25,651 bases of DNA, from positions 1 through 25,651 of IMG/VR virus record IMGVR_UViG_2778261088_000004; one strand, written 5' to 3'. The notes under the pieces are model-generated. The model had not been told where the DNA came from, searched no databases, and worked only from the letters and a program-made list of their open reading frames with translations. Below, piece after piece: positions 2,763 through 13,581 of the stretch. Position 1 is the stretch's first letter. Every line of letters starts with the position of its first letter. The DNA is from a virus. Lineage: Duplodnaviria > Heunggongvirae > Uroviricota > Caudoviricetes. The position numbers were made by a program, and so were the translations under genes.

Positions 2763-3368
2763 ATGAAAGGCGAAGTGAAAGAGCGCGGCATGATTTTTAA
2801 CGATGAGATGGTCCGGGCAATTCTTGGCGGGAATAAAACACAGACTCGCAGGATTGTTGAAGAAAAATTCTATGGACGGGCAGTGGCCGCAGAGTTGCTT
2901 GCCAAGCATTGTCCATATGGTCAACCGGGCGATCGTATTTGGGTTCGCGAAACCTACCGGGTACATGGCAAAGCGACGGACGTCGCAACGCTGGTTTATC
3001 GCGCAAGCGTGCGTAACTCCTGGACAGAACAAACGCACCGGGTTCCGGTCGAGGTTTGTAATAAACCAGTATCAGAAAAGTGGACGCCATCAATTCACAT
3101 GCCGCGCTGGGCATCGCGCATTCTTCTGGAAATTACCAACGTGCGCGTTGAGCGGTTGAACGATATCAGCGAATGCGATGCAAGGGATGAGGGCGTTCCG
3201 CCTGCTGGAAGTTTGCTTCCTGATCACCCGGGAACATTCCTTACTCCCAAGGGGGATTTCGCAATGGCCAAGGTTGCGTTCCAGCGCCTGTGGGAATCCA
3301 TCTACGGCGAAGAAAGCTGGAGTGCTAATCCCTGGGTTTGGGTAATCGAGTTTGAGCGTATTCAGTAG
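2763..3368 (+). CDS. ASCH-domain-like protein (201 aa)
   Basis: ATG after GGGGGA; N-terminal FNDEMVRAILGGNKTQTRR resembles the ASCH GxKxxxxR signature. Confidence 0.55.
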   Translation: MKGEVKERGMIFNDEMVRAILGGNKTQTRRIVEEKFYGRAVAAELLAKHCPYGQPGDRIWVRETYRVHGKATDVATLVYRASVRNSWTEQTHRVPVEVCNKPVSEKWTPSIHMPRWASRILLEITNVRVERLNDISECDARDEGVPPAGSLLPDHPGTFLTPKGDFAMAKVAFQRLWESIYGEESWSANPWVWVIEFERIQ

Positions 3369-3377
3369 GGCGAGCGT

Positions 3378-3599
3378 ATGCAATCAGTTATTTGTGAGGA
3401 AGTCGGCCTGAATAAAGCATCCCCAGCAGAGTTAAGAGCAAGTCTCGAAATGGCGCATAGCCTTGCTCAAATTGGTGTCAGGTTTGTACCAATTCCAGTT
3501 GAAACAGATGAAGAATTTCACAGGTTAGCGGCATCGGCAGCACAAAAGCTGGAAATCATGGCAGCGAAAGTAGAGAAAGCTGAAGGAGCGACAAAATGA
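3378..3599 (+). CDS. Hypothetical protein (73 aa)
   Basis: ORF track; its stop overlaps the next start (ATGA). Confidence 0.45.
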   Translation: MQSVICEEVGLNKASPAELRASLEMAHSLAQIGVRFVPIPVETDEEFHRLAASAAQKLEIMAAKVEKAEGATK

Positions 3600-3811
3600 G
3601 CAAGCCAACCGACGAAGAAATAGTTCGGGTGTTGGAAGAACACGGGCGCTGTATGACTTACGTCGTGACCAACTGGCTTAGGGATAAATATCGCACACTC
3701 AAAACGGCATACGTTTTGCGTCGTCTAAAGAAACTGGAGTTCGACGGGAAAGTAAAGCGCGTTAACAGTTCTTATATAAGACAAATTTGCTGGGAGGCAT
3801 CCAGTGAATAA
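3596..3811 (+). CDS. Hypothetical small protein (71 aa), possibly DNA-binding
   Basis: ATG overlaps the upstream stop; basic, helix-rich sequence; function is a guess. Confidence 0.45.
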   Translation: MSKPTDEEIVRVLEEHGRCMTYVVTNWLRDKYRTLKTAYVLRRLKKLEFDGKVKRVNSSYIRQICWEASSE

Positions 3812-4448
3812 CCGCTTTTACATGATGTGCTTGCGTGAAACTGTGGGTAATAACGCCTCATTCCATTGCCATAACGGCAATGGTTACAGTTCTGATATCG
3901 ATCGCGCTCATGTTTACACGCTGGAAGCAGCCCAAAAAGCCTGGAATTGTGGACGAGATATCGATCAGCCTGTTTGCGCTGATAGCGTGGATGCAATGGC
4001 TGTGTGGCACGTTGATTGCCAGTACATCCCTACAGAAAGCCTGATTGAGTCAGATTGCACTGCGTATGTGGCCTACAAAAAAGGTAGCTGGAACGGCAAC
4101 GATGTTTACTGGCTTCAACACGGTGGATTGCCAACAGATGACTTCAGTAAAGCGACCATCTTTAGCGTCGCCAACAAAAACGAACCAGGAATAGTTTGGT
4201 TGCCATTTTCCATTGCTGATGCAGCAAAGCGCCGGACGTTCAATATCAATAACTTTAACCGCAGAACAATGGTTCAGGGCGCAGGTTTGGTCATGCCTGA
4301 CTGGTTGAAAAAGCAAAACAGAAGAAAGAAGTCGCGAAGCGGGAAGGTGCGTTGGAATTGTCCGCATTGCGGAAAAATAACCTGGCAGTACAGCCCATAT
4401 GATTTTGAAGGCTGTAGTGATTACAACTGTGAAGGATGGCGAGAATGA
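3804..4448 (+). CDS. Hypothetical protein (214 aa) with C-terminal Cys-rich zinc-ribbon-like motif
   Basis: GTG start after GGGAGG, overlapping the upstream stop; C-terminus NCPHCGKITW...GCSDYNCEGW. Confidence 0.55.
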   Translation: MNNRFYMMCLRETVGNNASFHCHNGNGYSSDIDRAHVYTLEAAQKAWNCGRDIDQPVCADSVDAMAVWHVDCQYIPTESLIESDCTAYVAYKKGSWNGNDVYWLQHGGLPTDDFSKATIFSVANKNEPGIVWLPFSIADAAKRRTFNINNFNRRTMVQGAGLVMPDWLKKQNRRKKSRSGKVRWNCPHCGKITWQYSPYDFEGCSDYNCEGWRE

Positions 4449-5311
4449 CAATTGACTATCAGGTACTGCGTGAGGCGGCAGAAAAGGCAACACCAGACGA
4501 ATGGGTCGCATTTATTTCGACGGATACTGGTACTTATGCGGTGCACACGCCCGGTGATGAACGATGTGAAGACGTTATCAAATGGACCGGCTTTGATGGA
4601 CAGAAAAATGCAGAGAACAACGCTCGTTATGTTGCCGCGTTCAACCCAAAGGTTACACTGGAGCTGCTTGGTGAAATTAAGCGCCTGGAGGACACAAATA
4701 TTGATGCTATGTGTCGAATTGCAGAGCTTGAGACTAATCTCGCGGCGCTGGCAGCGGAGAATGCGGCGCTGAAGGCCGGGGCTATGTATTTCTCATATGG
4801 CTCTGAATTTAGTTTCGAGTGTCACAAAACTGCTGAGGAGGCTATCGCTGCTGCTGAGGCTGCAATTGACGACTATAGAGGCGATGCTTGCGATGGATGG
4901 AGCGAAGAGGTCGAAAGCATTTGCTGGGGGGTAATTATTCAGCAGGCAACCAAGGTCGGTGAACGCAAGAAGAGGAAATGCGACAGAGTATCACCATGGA
5001 TTGAAAGAGTTTGTGATTATGAGCTTCGACCTAATGTCGAAACCCCAGCCACCGATGCTTTCCTGTCTGAAATTCGTGCGGAAGCACGCAACGAGGGGAT
5101 TAACTATACCGCCAGCCGTCTTGCTGCTGCGTTCAATCACGGATTTATCAATAAGTCTTTGCGTGAAGTTTTCGACGTTACACGCATGATTTTGTCAGCG
5201 AAAGAAGAGTTGGCTAATGAAGCGCATCCGATTGATGGCCTGTCTGGTGAATATGCGGAGAAATCCCTTGAAGAATGGGCGGAACAGATTCGCAAAGGAA
5301 GCAGCCAGTGA
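4436..5311 (+). CDS. Phage Ead/Ea22-like protein (291 aa), paralog 1 of 3
   Basis: Shares NYQ/DYQ-x-LREAAE, RIAELE and PATDAFL-x-E-x-RA modules with the next two large ORFs; central coiled coil; family name from memory. Confidence 0.6.
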   Translation: MARMTIDYQVLREAAEKATPDEWVAFISTDTGTYAVHTPGDERCEDVIKWTGFDGQKNAENNARYVAAFNPKVTLELLGEIKRLEDTNIDAMCRIAELETNLAALAAENAALKAGAMYFSYGSEFSFECHKTAEEAIAAAEAAIDDYRGDACDGWSEEVESICWGVIIQQATKVGERKKRKCDRVSPWIERVCDYELRPNVETPATDAFLSEIRAEARNEGINYTASRLAAAFNHGFINKSLREVFDVTRMILSAKEELANEAHPIDGLSGEYAEKSLEEWAEQIRKGSSQ

Positions 5312-5598
5312 ATATCGACACGACAATAACGATCGATACGCTCCTAAATACCGGTCTGGCACTTCTCGGTTGGCTTTACATCATGTCCCGCACATGGCGA
5401 TGGCTGGGTTCCATTTTCCTAAAACAGTGGAAAAAACGGCGCAAACAGGAACTACGCCAGAAGGCATTAGAAGCGTTCTATGACGCATTTGAGCTTAGCC
5501 GCATTGAACCAGGTACAACAGCCAGGATAGCGACAAAAGGCGACCTGATGATAGTGATGTTCCGACAGGAGAGAGCAGAGAAAGGGGAATCAGCATGA
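5308..5598 (+). CDS. Small membrane protein (about 97 aa from GTG start)
   Basis: GTG at 5308 overlaps the upstream TGA (GTGA); hydrophobic segment LLNTGLALLGWLYIM; the track's ATG at 5275 would overlap the upstream gene by 37 nt. Confidence 0.45.
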   Translation: MNIDTTITIDTLLNTGLALLGWLYIMSRTWRWLGSIFLKQWKKRRKQELRQKALEAFYDAFELSRIEPGTTARIATKGDLMIVMFRQERAEKGESA

Positions 5599-6329
5599 AA
5601 TTTTCCAAATTTTCTGAGTTGGTGAATCGTATTTTGTCCAACAACCACAGCCATCGTCGCGATATGGATGTAACAATCGTTGTTCATTCGCCTGGCAGCA
5701 TTGGTTCAACACCTTCAGTTGAGGTTCAGTCAATTCACGCTGGTTTTGATTGGGATTCCGGGAAAGTGCTTATTTTCCCATCACAGCCACTGACCACGCT
5801 AACACCAGAACAGATTACTGATATCACTGATAGTGTGCGCAAAGGTCAGTCTTGGCACGCATATCAGGAATACAAGAAGCATCAAGAGCAGTTGGAAAAA
5901 TTGTCGATTGAACTGGATGCCGCAAAACAGCGCATTGCAGAGCTGGAGGGTAATCGCACGGCGCTGGCAGTGGAGAATGAGCTGGCTCGTAAGGCAGTTC
6001 AGGCATTCTGCGATGTTGTTGGCGACAACACCGAGGTTATCGCTGAGGTGGTTGGGCGAGATGGCGTTCTGGTTATTTTGGAGGCCATGAAGGCAACAGG
6101 AAATATGCCAGCCACCGATGCTTTCCTGGCTGAAGTGCGGGCGCAGGGCGTGGATGCTGCTATAGAAGCTGCAAAAAATCTGGTGGCCCAAGAATATGAG
6201 TATAAGGATTTCAAAGCGGCGCAGAGTGATTGCTGTATGCACCCTGGTTCAGACCTGGTAGGGAAGGTTGAAATGACTGAGTGGTTAGTTGACTTTGCTG
6301 CCCAGCTTCGCAAAGGAGGCAACCAGTGA
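5595..6329 (+). CDS. Phage Ead/Ea22-like protein (244 aa), paralog 2
   Basis: Contains PATDAFLAEVRA and RIAELE modules and the same C-terminal QLRKGGNQ tail type as paralog 1. Confidence 0.6.
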   Translation: MKFSKFSELVNRILSNNHSHRRDMDVTIVVHSPGSIGSTPSVEVQSIHAGFDWDSGKVLIFPSQPLTTLTPEQITDITDSVRKGQSWHAYQEYKKHQEQLEKLSIELDAAKQRIAELEGNRTALAVENELARKAVQAFCDVVGDNTEVIAEVVGRDGVLVILEAMKATGNMPATDAFLAEVRAQGVDAAIEAAKNLVAQEYEYKDFKAAQSDCCMHPGSDLVGKVEMTEWLVDFAAQLRKGGNQ

Positions 6330-6844
6330 GCGAAATTAATTACCAGGCACTGCGTGAGGCGGCGGAACGTGCAATTCCAGCAATGGAACGCCTGTTAATG
6401 TTGCCAGCTGATGATGACTTGTTAAGTGAACAGGAACTTAAAGATTACGGTGTGGATATTGATGCGCTCAACGCCTTCAAATTTCTGACCGGACCAGAAA
6501 CCGTGCTGGCACTGCTGGATGAACGGGAAAGAAACCTGCAATACATCAAAAGCCGCGACCAGGAGAACGAGGATATTGCGCTAACGGTAGGGAAGCTGCG
6601 CGTTGAGCTTGAAGCAGCAAAATCAAAACTCAACGAGCAGCGTGAATATTACGAGGGAGTAATCGCGGATGGAAGTAAGCGCATAGCAGAACTGGAGGAG
6701 CGGGAAATACTGCTCCCGGAACGTAGCAGCATGCTTCATCGAACAGATTTTCACGATGATTACCAAACGGTAATGGCATACAAAGTTTCTGAAGTCATCG
6801 CTGCAATCCGCGCCGCTGGCATTCGCATCAAAGGAGGTGAGTAA
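6326..6844 (+). CDS. Phage Ead/Ea22-like protein (172 aa), paralog 3
   Basis: GTG start overlapping the upstream stop (GTGA); N-terminal NYQALREAAERAIP matches paralog 1; RIAELEE module. Confidence 0.55.
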   Translation: MSEINYQALREAAERAIPAMERLLMLPADDDLLSEQELKDYGVDIDALNAFKFLTGPETVLALLDERERNLQYIKSRDQENEDIALTVGKLRVELEAAKSKLNEQREYYEGVIADGSKRIAELEEREILLPERSSMLHRTDFHDDYQTVMAYKVSEVIAAIRAAGIRIKGGE

Positions 6845-7016
6845 TGCGTGTGGCATGTATCGGCTTGTTACCGTACCCGACTCGTTTTTGGGCTTCTGCG
6901 CTAATTGCAAAGCCACATGTCCTGATGGCTGACAACATAATCCCGGCACCAAAGCGCCGCCATACCGGTATTGCAGCGGCACGACGAGCAGCAAAGAGAC
7001 GCAGGAGAGCAAAGCG

Positions 7017-7193
7017 ATGAAAAACCGTAAGGCAAAACGACTTTTTTTACAGCGACCTGTGCGTGTGGTGGAGCTGGTTATTAGCAACCATAAGATAGCG
7101 GTACTCCATCCATTTGGTCAGGTGGCTTTTGCCGCGAAGCGTAAGCCTACTGCGTCACAGAACAGGCGGAAGAAAGGGTACGCAGTAAGATGA
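7017..7193 (+). CDS. Small basic protein (58 aa, MKNRKAKRLFLQRP...)
   Basis: ATG after AGGAGAGC; not in the ORF track (under 60 aa); its TGA overlaps the ATG of the next small ORF, which starts with the same MKNRKAK. Confidence 0.35.
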   Translation: MKNRKAKRLFLQRPVRVVELVISNHKIAVLHPFGQVAFAAKRKPTASQNRRKKGYAVR

Positions 7194-7378
7194 AAAACCG
7201 TAAAGCAAAGATTCTGTTAGTTCGTAGAAACGCTCCTGGCGTCTGGCAGTGGGTGAGACTCAGCAACCGACGGATGGGGTTGATGAAATATTACGGGATG
7301 ATGGATTGTGGTTTTTGCAAAAAGCCCAGCGCGGCGCAAAACCGCTGGAAAAACCATTTGCGCACTAAAGGAGAGTGA
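7190..7378 (+). CDS. Small basic Cys-containing protein (62 aa, MKNRKAKILLVRR...)
   Basis: ORF track; N-terminus duplicated from the upstream small ORF. Confidence 0.4.
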   Translation: MKNRKAKILLVRRNAPGVWQWVRLSNRRMGLMKYYGMMDCGFCKKPSAAQNRWKNHLRTKGE

Positions 7379-7380
7379 TA

Positions 7381-7895
7381 TGGCGTTAACACACCGCGAA
7401 CTCTGTCAGATTGCGTACAAGTTCCTTAAGCGCAACGGGTTCAAGGTTTGTTTTCATGACCGCTTTATAGCTGTAACCAGTACCGGAGAACAGCCAGATG
7501 CTATGGGGTTCAGAAATTCAGCATCATGCCTGATAGAGGCGAAGTGTTCTCGTGCTGATTTGTTGGCAGATAGAAAAAAGCGTTTTCGTAAAAATCCGTC
7601 TCTTGGAATGGGCGACTGGCGATTCTTTATTAGTGAGCCGGGAATTATTTCAATTGAGGATTTACCACCTGGCTGGGGATTACTTCACGTTGTTAACGGA
7701 AGAGTACGGAAAGTACATGGGTGGCCCAAGGGTAATTGCTGTTGGGGTAACCCTGAAGATAAACCTTTTATTGGGAATAAGCAGGTTGAATGCGATTACA
7801 TGTTATCTGCATTAAGGCGCATGGAGTTGAGAGGGCACCTTAATGAAATATATGACGGTGTAATTGTTAATAAGAAAGAAGGAAACGCGGCATGA
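7381..7895 (+). CDS. Putative PD-(D/E)xK-fold nuclease (171 aa)
   Basis: ATG at 7381 after AAAGGAGAG (the track start at 7308 lacks a ribosome-binding site); motif GEQPDAMGF followed 14 residues later by CLIEAKCSR. Confidence 0.55.
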
Positions 7896-8749
7896 TCACT
7901 ATTACCAAAGAGCGACTGCTGACAATCAAGCAGTGGCGCGAAACATACGGACCTGATAGCAACGTTGTACTGCCAGCAGAAGAAGCGGAAGAACTGGCGC
8001 GTATCGTGCTGGCATCGCTGGAAGCAGAGCCTGTTCTGTATCAGTCCTGCACTCGCCCCACCTGGAATAGCGGTGTTCCGTGGACGGAATGGAAAGAACG
8101 TAGTCGTGAGTGCTACGAAGACGATTTGCGTTTTACAGACACGCCTGACCATGCTGGTTGGATATACAAATGTCGAAAACTATATACCACTCCGCCAGCG
8201 CCGATAGCGTTAGAGGCCATTGAAAACGCAATTGAATACATTCGTAGTATCGCTTTTCACATCGATGAAGACGATTACCACGGCAAACATATTGCGTATT
8301 TCATGCGACAAGCATTGGCCTGGCTGGAAGGGCATTCATGCAGCGACGACAGACTGGGTAAAGCCGACAATCAACCAGTACGCGGCAACCAGGCTGCCGA
8401 ATCCAATCGCGGTAATGAGTGGACCGGCAATCCTGATATTGATAACGCAATCATCATGCTCGACCGCATAGATACGGCGGAAAGTTACGATGATGACCGT
8501 ATTGAGGCTGTTAAGGCTGTTTTGCGTAGACTGGCAGGCAACTCTCCGGTAACTCCGGATGGTTGGATAAGCTGTAGTGAGCGAATGCCCCCTCAAGATG
8601 ATTGGATTTTAATTTATTCAAAGCACGGCGAGTATATGGCAGGACAGGTACAAGGGGAATACGTGGAGTTGAGCGACGGCACTTTATCGTGGTTAGGGAA
8701 CGCCTTGTTCTGGATGCCGTTACCAGAACCGCCGCAGGAGGCGAAATGA
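7892..8749 (+). CDS. Phage protein (285 aa) with C-terminal DUF551-like domain
   Basis: ATGA overlap with the upstream gene; C-terminal GW...LIYS...WLGNALFWMPLPEPP resembles the phage DUF551 domain from memory. Confidence 0.55.
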   Translation: MITITKERLLTIKQWRETYGPDSNVVLPAEEAEELARIVLASLEAEPVLYQSCTRPTWNSGVPWTEWKERSRECYEDDLRFTDTPDHAGWIYKCRKLYTTPPAPIALEAIENAIEYIRSIAFHIDEDDYHGKHIAYFMRQALAWLEGHSCSDDRLGKADNQPVRGNQAAESNRGNEWTGNPDIDNAIIMLDRIDTAESYDDDRIEAVKAVLRRLAGNSPVTPDGWISCSERMPPQDDWILIYSKHGEYMAGQVQGEYVELSDGTLSWLGNALFWMPLPEPPQEAK

Positions 8750-9006
8750 TGGATGTAAAAGAGAAGGTTTTGCAGGTGATGCGTTCCCGGGCTGCCCTGC
8801 AAGATAAAGCTCTCGGCGGGGAATATCCATTCAGGATGGCAACCTGGAATCTGCGGTTGGCAATGGAGAAGGAATTTCCTGATGAAGAATGGCGTTCGGC
8901 AGATTTGCGCAAAATTCTTATGGAGCTGGCTAAAGACGGAACAGTATCCAAAGATACCCATGCCAGCCGGATTGGTCAGGCGGTATGGAGACTGGAGGTG
9001 AGGTAA
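8746..9006 (+). CDS. Hypothetical protein (86 aa)
   Basis: Start taken at the ATG overlapping the upstream TGA (ATGA); the track's start at 8602 would lie inside the upstream gene. Confidence 0.45.
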   Translation: MMDVKEKVLQVMRSRAALQDKALGGEYPFRMATWNLRLAMEKEFPDEEWRSADLRKILMELAKDGTVSKDTHASRIGQAVWRLEVR

Positions 9007-9287
9007 TGGCTAACCTGCAACTTGCCGTTAAAGGTGAATACTTCGATGCCATGATTCGCGGGGAGAAAACGGAAGAGTATCGCCTGTGTAATGACTACTG
9101 GAATAAGCGCCTCGTTAACCGTAAGTATTACCGCCTGATTATCACAAAGGGATATCCGAAGCGCGAAGACTTCAGTCGCAGAATTGACGTCCCGTATAAC
9201 GGATATGAAATAAAAACAATCACACATCCACACTTCGGTGATAAACCGGTAAAGGTGTTCGCGATAAAAGTGAAGATTAATAGCTAA
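9006..9287 (+). CDS. Small ASCH-domain-like protein (93 aa)
   Basis: ATG after GGAGGTGAGG (TAATG overlap); AVKGEYFDAMIRGEKTEEYR matches the ASCH GxKxxExR signature. Confidence 0.5.
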   Translation: MANLQLAVKGEYFDAMIRGEKTEEYRLCNDYWNKRLVNRKYYRLIITKGYPKREDFSRRIDVPYNGYEIKTITHPHFGDKPVKVFAIKVKINS

Positions 9288-9310: not shown

Positions 9311-9604
9311 ATGTGGCGCGGTAATAATCATGGCGGAAGTCAGATGATACTTACCGAATATACGTTCGACCACAAAACCAATAAATCACGTTCAGTATAT
9401 TTGCTTCGGCACAATAGCCGCGTAAGAAATACCGTTCTGGAGCAAAATCTGACCGTTGAAATGGATAATTTGGGAAACTTCAAGCCAACAATATCGCTTG
9501 ATGATTTTCCGTGTGGTTTAAGCGAAAGAGAAGCAATGCTGAAATTAGCAGAATGGCTACAAAGATTAAGCATTGCTATTGAAGATAACTGGTCTGAACC
9601 TTAA
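9311..9604 (+). CDS. Hypothetical protein (97 aa)
   Basis: ORF with upstream GGAG; no motif recognised. Confidence 0.45.
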   Translation: MWRGNNHGGSQMILTEYTFDHKTNKSRSVYLLRHNSRVRNTVLEQNLTVEMDNLGNFKPTISLDDFPCGLSEREAMLKLAEWLQRLSIAIEDNWSEP

Positions 9605-9610
9605 ATTAAT

Positions 9611-9985
9611 ATGATGACACTAAAACATTTTCTTGACCGCCCATTATGGGCGGCAGCCGCAGGCTATGACTTTAATTATATGGATTGCATGTCTTATACT
9701 GCCAATGCATACGACCATTCGTTCAGCCTGCTGTTTAATTCTTTAAGAATATTGCCGGAAACAGAAGTTGGAGAGCTTCATTTATGGATATTGGGCTTTA
9801 TCGCGGCTGGAGTTGGTATTGCCGTATGGCCTTTTATTTTCTGGCTGGTGGCTGTTGTAGTGTGGTTTAAGTGCAAGACGTACCGGAAAAAGTATTTCTT
9901 AGGTGATGGAATGACTGATATTGCCAAAATGAACATTGAAAAATGGACTAAGGAATGTGAAAAGAAATGGCGCAAAAAGAAATGA
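9611..9985 (+). CDS. Small membrane protein (124 aa)
   Basis: Predicted helices LWILGFIAAGVGIAVWPFIFWLVAVVVWF; lysine-rich C-terminus. Confidence 0.5.
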   Translation: MMTLKHFLDRPLWAAAAGYDFNYMDCMSYTANAYDHSFSLLFNSLRILPETEVGELHLWILGFIAAGVGIAVWPFIFWLVAVVVWFKCKTYRKKYFLGDGMTDIAKMNIEKWTKECEKKWRKKK

Positions 9986-10641
9986 CTACTCTAACGACAG
10001 CATACTTACAGCAATTGGTATTTTTTGCAGGCGAGGCTACTTGTCATCCTGACGCAAACTATTTATTGGAATTTGAGAGGTTAGCGTCACCCGGTATCGT
10101 TCTGGAACTGGCCCAACAGGTGCTGGCCTTGAGACAAAAAGAGCAACATGAAAGTAATACGTGTAGATTGAATTTTGAGCAGTGGCTGGAACAGCAACGC
10201 GGAAAAATCGATGTGGACTGTGGTTGTGTGTCCACTGAAACATTCATGCACTGGCTGCGGGTAGCTTACGAGGCTGGCAACTATCCGGATATTCCGGATA
10301 GTTCGGTGCCAGCGCCAGGAAAGGGCGTCACCGGTGAACGTATCCGCATTAAGCCGCATGTTTATCGCGAACTGGTTAACCGTCTCCACGATACAGCGAT
10401 CAAGTGTGCTGGCACCCAGCAATTACGAGAAAGAATTAGCCGTGTTTTGGGCGACGTTATTACGCCATATCATCATAAACAAGCCGAGAAAAGCGGTCTG
10501 GAAAGGTGTCATCTTGAGGCAGCATTAAACATTAAGCCGGGGCATACGCTTGGCATTATTGATGCACTGTTGGTTCATAAGATGGCCAGGGCTTTATTGT
10601 CGTTGGTGGACGCTGGTGATACAAGCGAGGGTGAAGTATGA
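9967..10641 (+). CDS. Hypothetical protein (224 aa; start may instead be ATG 9982)
   Basis: ORF track; the alternative ATG at 9982 overlaps the upstream stop (ATGA). Confidence 0.5.
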   Translation: MAQKEMTTLTTAYLQQLVFFAGEATCHPDANYLLEFERLASPGIVLELAQQVLALRQKEQHESNTCRLNFEQWLEQQRGKIDVDCGCVSTETFMHWLRVAYEAGNYPDIPDSSVPAPGKGVTGERIRIKPHVYRELVNRLHDTAIKCAGTQQLRERISRVLGDVITPYHHKQAEKSGLERCHLEAALNIKPGHTLGIIDALLVHKMARALLSLVDAGDTSEGEV

Positions 10642-12432: not shown

Positions 12433-13017
12433 TCAAAATCCCCTGTTATCGTTTTGCATTTCTCTAATCCGGTTCAGAACTACTTCATGCTGGACTTGGA
12501 TAGCGGCTTTTTCGTTTTCAAGCCGGGCAATAGACATCTCTAATTCTTTGCTGTACCAGGCGAGCTGGGCCAGGTTCATCCGGTTGTGGTCGAGAGTTGG
12601 AGACACTTCGACGCGATCCCTTTCTTCCTGCTTTAATGAGAAGAGATTTATCTCATCCCTTGAGGAAAATTCAGCAACAATTTCTTGTTGATGATCCGGT
12701 CGCTGCGGCATCCTCGCCAGTATAAATGGCGGTTCTTTTGAAAACATGAATGTCGGTTCAGACCGTGTTTTTACCCAGCTTGCCTGCTGTCTTTCGGCAA
12801 GTTCACAGGCTTCATCATAGTTATCTGCCAAACAAAGCACGGATGGACGGTCCCACGCCCCACCATTCAGACAATAAACTACAATTTTCCCGTCAGGTTG
12901 TGTAACCCCATATGGATGGTCCCACCAGGCGTCCAGCTGAGCTTTAGAGCGTTTCTCGTTAGGAGTGCAGTCAAAATTTTTGGGCAATACAGGATCGAGA
13001 GGAATGCGGGCAGGCAT
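12433..13017 (-). CDS. Hypothetical protein (194 aa), proximal gene of a divergent two-gene operon
   Basis: ATG at 13017 with AAGGA 8 nt upstream; C-terminal coiled-coil-like segment; shares its upstream intergenic region with humD. Confidence 0.6.
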   Translation of the reverse strand: MPARIPLDPVLPKNFDCTPNEKRSKAQLDAWWDHPYGVTQPDGKIVVYCLNGGAWDRPSVLCLADNYDEACELAERQQASWVKTRSEPTFMFSKEPPFILARMPQRPDHQQEIVAEFSSRDEINLFSLKQEERDRVEVSPTLDHNRMNLAQLAWYSKELEMSIARLENEKAAIQVQHEVVLNRIREMQNDNRGF

Positions 13018-13152: not shown

Positions 13153-13172
13153 TACTGTATAAATGAACAGTA
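13153..13172 (+). promoter_or_regulatory. LexA (SOS) box TACTGTATAAATGAACAGTA
   Basis: CTGT-N8-ACAG with flanking TA/TA, close to the E. coli LexA consensus TACTGTATATATATACAGTA; 20 nt upstream of the humD ATG and overlapping a TATAAAT -10-like hexamer. Confidence 0.7.
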
Positions 13173-13191: not shown

Positions 13192-13581
13192 ATGGGCTTC
13201 CCTTCTCCTGCGGCGGATTATGTTGAAAGCCGAATTTCTCTTGATCAGCAACTAATCAGGCATCCATCAGCAACCTACTTCATGCGGGCAGCTGATAGCC
13301 ATCACCGTGAGGGAATATTGCAGGGTGCTTTGCTGGTGGTTGATTCCTCGCTTACTCCGGTTGATGGTTCTCTGCTTGTGTGCGCTATGGAGGGTGAATA
13401 TCGCATAAAGAGATACAGGAAGTATCCGCGCCAGCACCTGGAGGATTTAAGCACCGGGAAGAAAGAGGCGTTACCAGTAGATGACGATGGATGCACGGGC
13501 AGTAATGCTGTTTTTGGTGTGATCACTCATGTCATCAATGATGCCCGAAGTGGGGAGTTTGATGATTGTCCGGTTATTTAA
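13192..13581 (+). CDS. humD: HumD, UmuD'-like SOS mutagenesis protein homolog (129 aa)
   Basis: GFPSPAADYVE...HPSATYF...FGVITHV aligns with the E. coli UmuD C-terminal domain; LexA box upstream; position before phd-doc as in P1. Confidence 0.85.
   Translation: MGFPSPAADYVESRISLDQQLIRHPSATYFMRAADSHHREGILQGALLVVDSSLTPVDGSLLVCAMEGEYRIKRYRKYPRQHLEDLSTGKKEALPVDDDGCTGSNAVFGVITHVINDARSGEFDDCPVI

Follow-up and report, generated by a model that had tools for sequence, protein, structure and literature searches.

A small gene of a P1-like phage-plasmid very probably encodes a PD-(D/E)xK nuclease whose family we read as a distant sister of MmcB-like proteins

What does a gene encode that is common in many Stx prophages and P1-like plasmids, has approximately 3,300 related clusters, and carries no functional annotation, with no Pfam or NCBIfam model covering it? 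The question is raised here by one copy of this gene in a stretch of viral DNA of 25,651 nt, which was analysed as a whole and is called the window below. Phage genomes are expected to carry small PD-(D/E)xK nucleases, and an earlier note on the window had read the active site of such a nuclease in the product of this gene. Our structural modelling and family comparisons make it very probable that the product of the target gene is a small nuclease with the fold of restriction endonucleases. This finding overturns nothing and is unsurprising to a specialist. The analysis adds the apparent affiliation with MmcB as a sister group outside the curated models, the size and spread of the family, a nuclease-primase neighbourhood in lytic phages, and a problem in the RefSeq annotation.

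At 99.5% identity to MH422554, the window belongs with the P1-like phage-plasmids. The Pfam domains flanking the target are those of a HAD/PNKP phosphatase, two Ead/Ea22-like genes, DUF4752, DUF551, an S24 peptidase (a UmuD-like repair protein in MH422554), Fic/Doc, and DUF968. P1-like records annotate the same neighbourhood with pmgS, a phosphatase, a UmuD-like protein or humD, phd/doc, lpa, and pacA. In the stretch from the phosphatase gene to the humD/phd-doc block, at about 2.7 to 11 kb of the window, lies a lambdoid 'ea'-type cassette, in which the following genes were located in addition to the target and its direct neighbours:

4436-5311 and 6326-6844, + strand: Ead/Ea22-like genes of the ea cassette
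5275-5598, + strand: DUF4752 gene of the ea cassette
8985-9287, + strand: ASCH-like gene, whose counterpart is annotated ASCH in phage RCS47

RCS47, a related phage, has the ea cassette without the target gene. The cassette site holds other gene sets in related P1-like elements, as in RCS47 and in a plasmid with a PAPS-reductase-family gene.

The target is one uninterrupted frame of 171 codons, running from an ATG at 7380 to a TGA ending at 7895, which confirms the product size of 171 aa given previously. The coordinates proposed for it, 7381-7895, are correct at the end, and at the start they are one base late and out of frame. The gene and its immediate surroundings are laid out as follows:

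7190..7378, + strand: very basic ORF of 62 aa, with its stop (7376-7378) 1 nt ahead of the target ATG
7368..7373, + strand: Shine-Dalgarno-like AAGGAG, 6 nt before the target ATG, from direct reading of the sequence
7380..7895, + strand, stop included: target ORF for the 171-aa MmcB-like PD-(D/E)xK protein, from the ORF listing and its translation
7892..8749, + strand: DUF551 (EaA-like) gene (Pfam DUF551, E 2.5e-10), with a start that overlaps the target stop (ATGA)

With the DUF551 start inside its stop, the target gene is one of a series of closely spaced ORFs on the same strand. The 62-aa ORF is a tandem paralog of the ORF at 7017-7193 on the + strand (37% identity, E 5e-10). The two overlapping ORFs code for very basic products of 58 and 62 aa that both start with MKNRKAK, and their first 21 nt form a direct repeat; the 62-aa product is annotated in RefSeq (WP_000797279), while its paralog is not. 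The 62-aa ORF is a neighbour of the target and a candidate partner at most. A consensus scan of the surroundings found no promoter or terminator near the target on the coding strand. There was no LexA box near the target either, the only such site in the window lying about 5 kb away, at 13153-13172, upstream of humD. This near-consensus box, TACTGTATAAATGAACAGTA, is located between humD (13192-13581) and a divergent gene on the - strand (12433-13017), which carries the annotation 'LexA regulated function' in MH422554. SOS control of the kind known for mmcB was rejected for the target, which has no LexA box nearby.

The active site had been proposed from two motifs, GEQPDAMGF and CLIEAKCSR. They start at residues 36 and 50, that is, 14 residues apart from start to start, just as described, and these starts place the candidate catalytic residues at D40, E53, and K55, with D and E separated by 12 residues. 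Taken alone, the D..[DE]xK motif is weak evidence and within chance, since shuffling the target protein yields the pattern D-x(8-25)-[DE]-x-K in 57% of cases, and 17 of the window's 31 long ORFs contain it as well. The stricter form PD...[DE]xK, with the preceding proline, occurred in one of these 31 ORFs and in 5% of the shuffles. As the motif alone is within chance, support for the nuclease reading rests on family conservation and on the predicted fold. The conserved elements of the target, all on the + strand, are listed below:

7458..7460: codon of D27, the acidic residue ending the first strand (D or E in 138 of 139 representatives)
7485..7553: active-site block G36-E37-Q-P39-D40, I52-E53-A-K55, and S57-R58, from conservation and from the alignments with MmcB and Hjc
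7497-7499: D40 codon in the active-site block
7536-7538: E53 codon in the active-site block
7542-7544: K55 codon in the active-site block
7557..7622: family-specific segment after the ExK strand, with D60, D64, K67, R70, G76, G78, and R81 each 95-100% conserved, covering helix 58-64 and the start of strand 80-85
7776..7820: C-terminal helix N133-K-Q-x-E137 ... A144-L-R146-R147, from conservation and from helix 134-150 of the model

Conservation was assessed in 147 cluster representatives aligned to the family model, 144 of which span the triad. D40, E53, and K55 are all intact in 142 of these 144 representatives of 50%-identity clusters. Taken singly, E37, D40, E53, and K55 are each conserved in 99% of the 147 representatives and H5 in 97%. 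D60, K67, R70, and G78 reach 100%, and D64, R81, and W99 reach 99%. Toward the C-terminus, E137 (98%), R146 (90%), and R147 (91%) are also conserved.

The AlphaFold2 model of the target, built with 33 homologs, had a mean pLDDT of 84.8 and a pTM of 0.79. It contains helix 5-18, strands 22-26, 41-45, and 48-54, helix 58-64, and strand 80-85, which together form the alpha-beta-beta-beta-alpha-beta core on which the earlier reading depended, followed by a hairpin (100-113) and a long helix (134-150). D40 opens the second strand of the model, and E53 and K55 close the third, so the target has the two conserved features by which the superfamily is recognised, an acidic residue opening strand 2 and a (D/E)xK on strand 3. 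With the triad kept across the family and the core fold predicted, the PD-(D/E)xK reading of the active site is well supported. The Foldseek comparison suggested in the earlier note also bore out the fold. The one significant match in the PDB was 3DNX (E 5.4e-6, TM 0.56/0.64), followed by weaker matches to Hjc, the R2 endonuclease domain, AF1548, Bax1, EcoT38I, and XisH, and all strong structural neighbours of the model were PD-(D/E)xK proteins. A fold search of BFVD placed several phage proteins named MmcB family or MmcB-like in UniProt among the top matches.

The XisH-family structures among these matches raise another explanation, namely that the target is a non-catalytic protein of the PD-(D/E)xK fold that controls excision or the choice between lysis and lysogeny, in the manner of XisH or other exo-xis proteins. 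Lambdoid prophages carry the gene close to xis and int, one homolog overlaps the start of an integrase gene, and two studies describe effects of other exo-xis genes on lysogeny (PMC7093339, PMC3824215). However, such a regulator is highly improbable because the catalytic residues are 99% conserved, which is unexpected for a pseudo-enzyme, and homologs are also present in lytic phages that have no integrase.

The target matches two PHROGs over its full length, PHROG 9263 (E 1e-121, residues 3-171) and PHROG 631 (E 9.3e-94, residues 1-170), both labelled 'unknown function', and a PHROG labelled 'DNA repair protein' matches it weakly (E 0.003). Searches with the single target sequence gave no Pfam match, no NCBIfam match, and only noise in the PDB by sequence. 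The defence models of PADLOC-DB v2 gave no match to the target at E<=0.1. The link to MmcB emerged only via family profiles and structure. A family HMM built from 50 diverse members matches 3DNX with an E-value of 1e-4, and hhalign comparison of the family alignment with 20 MmcB proteins gave a probability of 98% and an E-value of 3e-13 over 123 columns. In this comparison the first-strand acidic residue, D40, E53-x-K55, an S-R-x-D-F-x-x-D helix, an R-F/Y strand, and a C-terminal A-x-R-R helix were all in register. D40/E53/K55 of the target align with D39/E53/K55 of the MmcB proteins, D27 with their conserved EE, and the C-terminal helix with their AARRL helix. D60, D64, and R81 of the target family are likewise present in MmcB proteins. 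The portion of 3DNX that aligns with the target family scores 110 bits on PF06319 (E 1.1e-31), and the close homologs of 3DNX are all named MmcB family DNA repair protein. Thus, profile-profile and structure comparisons both indicate homology to MmcB-like proteins over the whole domain. The PF06319 (MmcB-like) model itself gave no match to the target or to 33 relatives in hmmscan at E<=10, below its gathering threshold. For this reason we read the target family as an unnamed, mostly phage-borne distant sister of MmcB-like nucleases, and not as a part of PF06319.

The only recurrent Pfam signal was that of Hjc (PF01870). Sub-threshold matches were found in 14 of the 33 relatives (best E 0.008), whose scores of about 17-18 bits fall short of the 21.1 cut-off, and the target itself had no match. 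As the MmcB-like and Hjc models both stay below threshold, no function can be transferred by membership. The target might still be imagined as an archaeal Hjc-type Holliday-junction resolvase that, like T7 endonuclease I, works as a homodimer and resolves four-way junctions ahead of packaging. In addition to the weak Pfam matches, this reading could draw on the family HMM, which aligns D40/E53/K55 with Hjc D42/E55/K57 at identical spacing, on the Hjc structures among the fold matches, and on the homologs located in the replication module of lytic phages. We consider it unlikely.

The family is large. A word-indexed search returned 319 relatives of the target at 60-100% identity in Enterobacterales, all of them unnamed, and full-length homologs at 60-98% identity occur across this order. 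A HMMER scan with the family profile detected 3,308 representatives of 50%-identity clusters at E<=1e-3, of which 2,457 remained at E<=1e-10, and tblastn located the family in 643 phage records. Among 5,426 complete E. coli genomes the target gene was present in 931, with 1,050 chromosomal and 250 plasmid copies. Longer family members, such as those with TniB or dATP/dGTP pyrophosphohydrolase, were considered as informative fusions and rejected, as they share no consistent added domain; they look like fusions with neighbour genes or mis-calls. The literature on the exo-xis region, phage MmcB-like proteins, Ackermannviridae, and DUF551/ASCH does not describe the target protein, and in the literature searched nothing was found on the biochemistry or genetics of any family member.

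The gene neighbourhoods of the family are dominated by DNA metabolism. In the lytic Vibrio Mardecavirus PVA73, the homolog, annotated 'endonuclease', belongs to the replication module, where it follows, in this order, a DnaC-like loader, an Xni flap endonuclease, a DnaB-like helicase, and another helicase, and directly precedes a primase. IMG/VR loci of the PVA73 type have a helicase upstream and a Zn-ribbon primase downstream of the homolog. In Kuttervirus, Taipeivirus, and Limestonevirus (Ackermannviridae) and in the 157-kb Vibrio phage K452, the homolog is located one small gene upstream of the DNA primase, and the gene in between is often a homing endonuclease. Across Ackermannviridae, K452, and Mardecavirus, no more than one small gene ever separates the homolog from the DNA primase downstream of it. 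Five homologs from lytic phages were compared with the target:

4980-5597, 2980-3588, 2980-3594, 2896-3672, and 4869-5480, in positions of the extracted loci: five lytic-phage homologs

These homologs keep D40, E53, K55, R58, D60, D64, R81, and the C-terminal helix, and carry an inserted segment. Possibly, though we put this forward only tentatively, the family is an unrecognised component of phage replication, a primase-linked MmcB-like structure-specific nuclease that is core in Ackermannviridae and Mardecavirus and optional in lambdoid, Stx, and P1-like phages. Such an enzyme would process stalled forks or intermediates of recombination-dependent replication, or would clear cross-link-type damage from phage DNA.

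In the temperate Vibrio phage X29, the neighbours of the homolog are an exonuclease, RNase T, DUF551, DUF1064, a RusA-like protein, ASCH, Dam, and SSB. In this Vibrio cholerae phage (extracted-locus 4660-7520), a stretch of about 3 kb contains the DUF551 gene, the homolog of the nuclease, and a gene with an ASCH domain, as in the E. coli window. This hints that DUF551, nuclease, and ASCH accessory genes travel together across host genera. Over 70 IMG/VR viral loci, the 109 immediate same-strand neighbours fell into 73 clusters, so the check for linkage to an adjacent partner, proposed previously, revealed no obligate one. The Pfam domains of these clusters included dATP/dGTP pyrophosphohydrolase, C5 DNA methylase, helicases, primase zinc ribbon, NinG, NinB, SSB, Lar, DUF1064, HNH, and RNA ligase. 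The largest cluster was DUF551, which was found at 10 loci. It was rejected as an obligate partner because it lies on either side of the homolog and in a minority of loci.

In Stx and lambdoid prophages, copies of the target gene sit between exo and xis in the pL-side early-left block, and because of this position the placement in an early operon proposed in the earlier note holds for the lambdoid copies. An O157:H7 prophage that adjoins mlrA, the bacterial gene beyond its int, has the order gam-bet-exo ... TraR-Ea22-[target homolog]-hyp-DUF551-...-xis-int. O157:H7-type copies of the gene, compared with the target through the E. coli O157:H7 E32511 prophage next to mlrA (extracted-locus positions 6001-6514), carry a 2-nt deletion together with two neighbouring substitutions, all precisely within the I-E-A-K codons (window 7533-7544). 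E53 and K55 are therefore lost, and the product ends after 58 aa (WP_001356547). Among 883 matching E. coli records, at least 216 contain a sequence >=99% identical to the deleted form, the listed examples being mostly O157:H7, and allele counts from short probes discriminate only in part because gapped alignments bridge the 2-nt deletion. The O157:H7 lineage is possibly clonal. The deletion in the active site may thus be a single inherited clonal event, and we do not read it as repeated selection against the activity. Being absent from RCS47 and inactivated in many O157:H7 prophages, the gene is dispensable there. For the P1-like phage-plasmid, we propose that the target is dispensable cargo imported with the lambdoid ea cassette.

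The same allele bears on how the gene has been annotated. RefSeq labels a copy with 100% identity to the target (NZ_CP033848.1) 'hypothetical protein, frameshifted' and marks only its first 179 nt, and the GenBank P1 record MH422554 leaves the gene (extracted-locus 9561-10075) unannotated. The first-179-nt feature of RefSeq is found at extracted-locus positions 9001-9179 in NZ_CP033848.1 and again at a second locus (7001-7179). These records would fit a target that is a non-functional, frameshifted pseudogene, a reading that is barely credible. The window copy is one unbroken frame, full-length homologs from many genera and phage families are collinear with it, its C-terminal residues are conserved, and the real frameshift is the 2-nt deletion of O157:H7-type copies that gives rise to WP_001356547. 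We infer that this truncated O157 product is the reference that misleads the RefSeq annotation, and the 'frameshifted' label on the intact gene looks like an artefact. As a result of the handling in RefSeq and GenBank, protein sets systematically lack an intact gene that is widespread.

In the O157:H7 allele the break falls precisely on the ExK codons, as if the activity were costly to the lysogen, and this could point to a nuclease of genetic conflict, either a prophage exclusion or defence effector or an early anti-defence or host-DNA-degrading enzyme. Such a role could also be suggested by the hypervariable accessory cassettes in which temperate phages and the phage-plasmid carry the gene, by the Lar restriction alleviation and DNA methylase genes adjoining it at some loci, and by the fold, which the target shares with restriction enzymes and CRISPR ancillary nucleases. 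However, the O157 lesion may reflect one clonal event, and the gene lacks a PADLOC match, a sensor or partner gene, and a conserved neighbour. In strictly lytic phages of Ackermannviridae and Mardecavirus it is retained near the primase, which is easier to reconcile with a function in replication than with a variable gene of conflict, and unspecific degradation of host DNA would be suicidal for lambdoid phages, whose own DNA is unmodified. A conflict nuclease is therefore a rather doubtful explanation.

Taken together, we give a probability of roughly one half to the reading that the target is a small, stand-alone, metal-dependent MmcB-sister endonuclease acting on branched or damaged DNA, carried as dispensable cargo in the P1-like phage-plasmid. 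D/E27, E37, and D40 on strands 1 and 2 and E53 on strand 3 would hold Mg2+, K55 would position the attacking water, and the basic residues R58, K67, R70, R81, R146, and R147 would bind the DNA backbone. The predicted substrates are stalled or reversed forks, D-loops, junctions, and cross-link-like lesions that may arise from phage replication and recombination. The role on branched or damaged DNA is inferred from relatives and gene neighbourhoods, as the nearest relative, MmcB, is an endonuclease that protects against mitomycin C and cisplatin, the next-nearest minimal nucleases are junction resolvases (Hjc), and the family adjoins primase and helicase genes in lytic phages and exo and bet in lambdoid phages. 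Selectivity for DNA structure is suggested because a temperate phage with unmodified DNA presumably could not afford an unspecific DNase, and sequence-specific restriction or bulk degradation of host DNA is less likely. For the copies of temperate phages, which lie in mosaic regions with anti-restriction and defence-type genes (Lar, methylases), other roles fit equally well.

The placement beside MmcB would give this nuclease a testable active site (D40, E53, K55) and would justify screening branched or damaged DNA for its substrates. The conserved nuclease-primase neighbourhood is worth study in phages used for therapy, such as the lytic Kuttervirus and Limestonevirus. If the primase-linked reading is true, the family would provide the first tractable phage model of MmcB-type repair.

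Among known systems, the closest to the target are the MmcB-like proteins (PF06319, formerly DUF1052), represented by 3DNX (SPO1766 of Ruegeria pomeroyi) and by MmcB of Caulobacter, with about 22-28% identity. MmcB is an SOS-induced PD-(D/E)XK endonuclease needed in Caulobacter for tolerance to mitomycin C and cisplatin, and it is hypothesised to work with translesion polymerases on interstrand cross-links, its place in cross-link repair being likewise a hypothesis (PMC9578287). No description of its substrate was found in that review. The target family differs from MmcB in having G-E-x-P-D where MmcB proteins have R-V-D, an extra K-K-x-F-R-x-x-P-x-x-G-M-G insertion, a W-G-L-L motif, and a longer hairpin region (100-133). 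It is phage-borne, whereas MmcB is chromosomal in alphaproteobacteria, and mmcB is SOS-regulated (PMC9578287), whereas the target has no LexA box nearby. With the archaeal Hjc (PF01870; 1HH1, 2EO0, 2WCW), the target has in common the minimal PD-(D/E)xK core, the D-x12-E-x-K spacing, and an S or T after the lysine, its D40/E53/K55 corresponding to D42/E55/K57 of Sulfolobus Hjc. T7 endonuclease I, VRR-NUC, lambda Exo, Cas4-like proteins, and type II restriction enzymes (SdaI) resemble the target in fold and in the architecture of a metal-dependent active site. Its direct affiliation is with PHROG 9263 and PHROG 631, which carry no functional annotation, and the link of these PHROGs to MmcB-like nucleases is new in this analysis.
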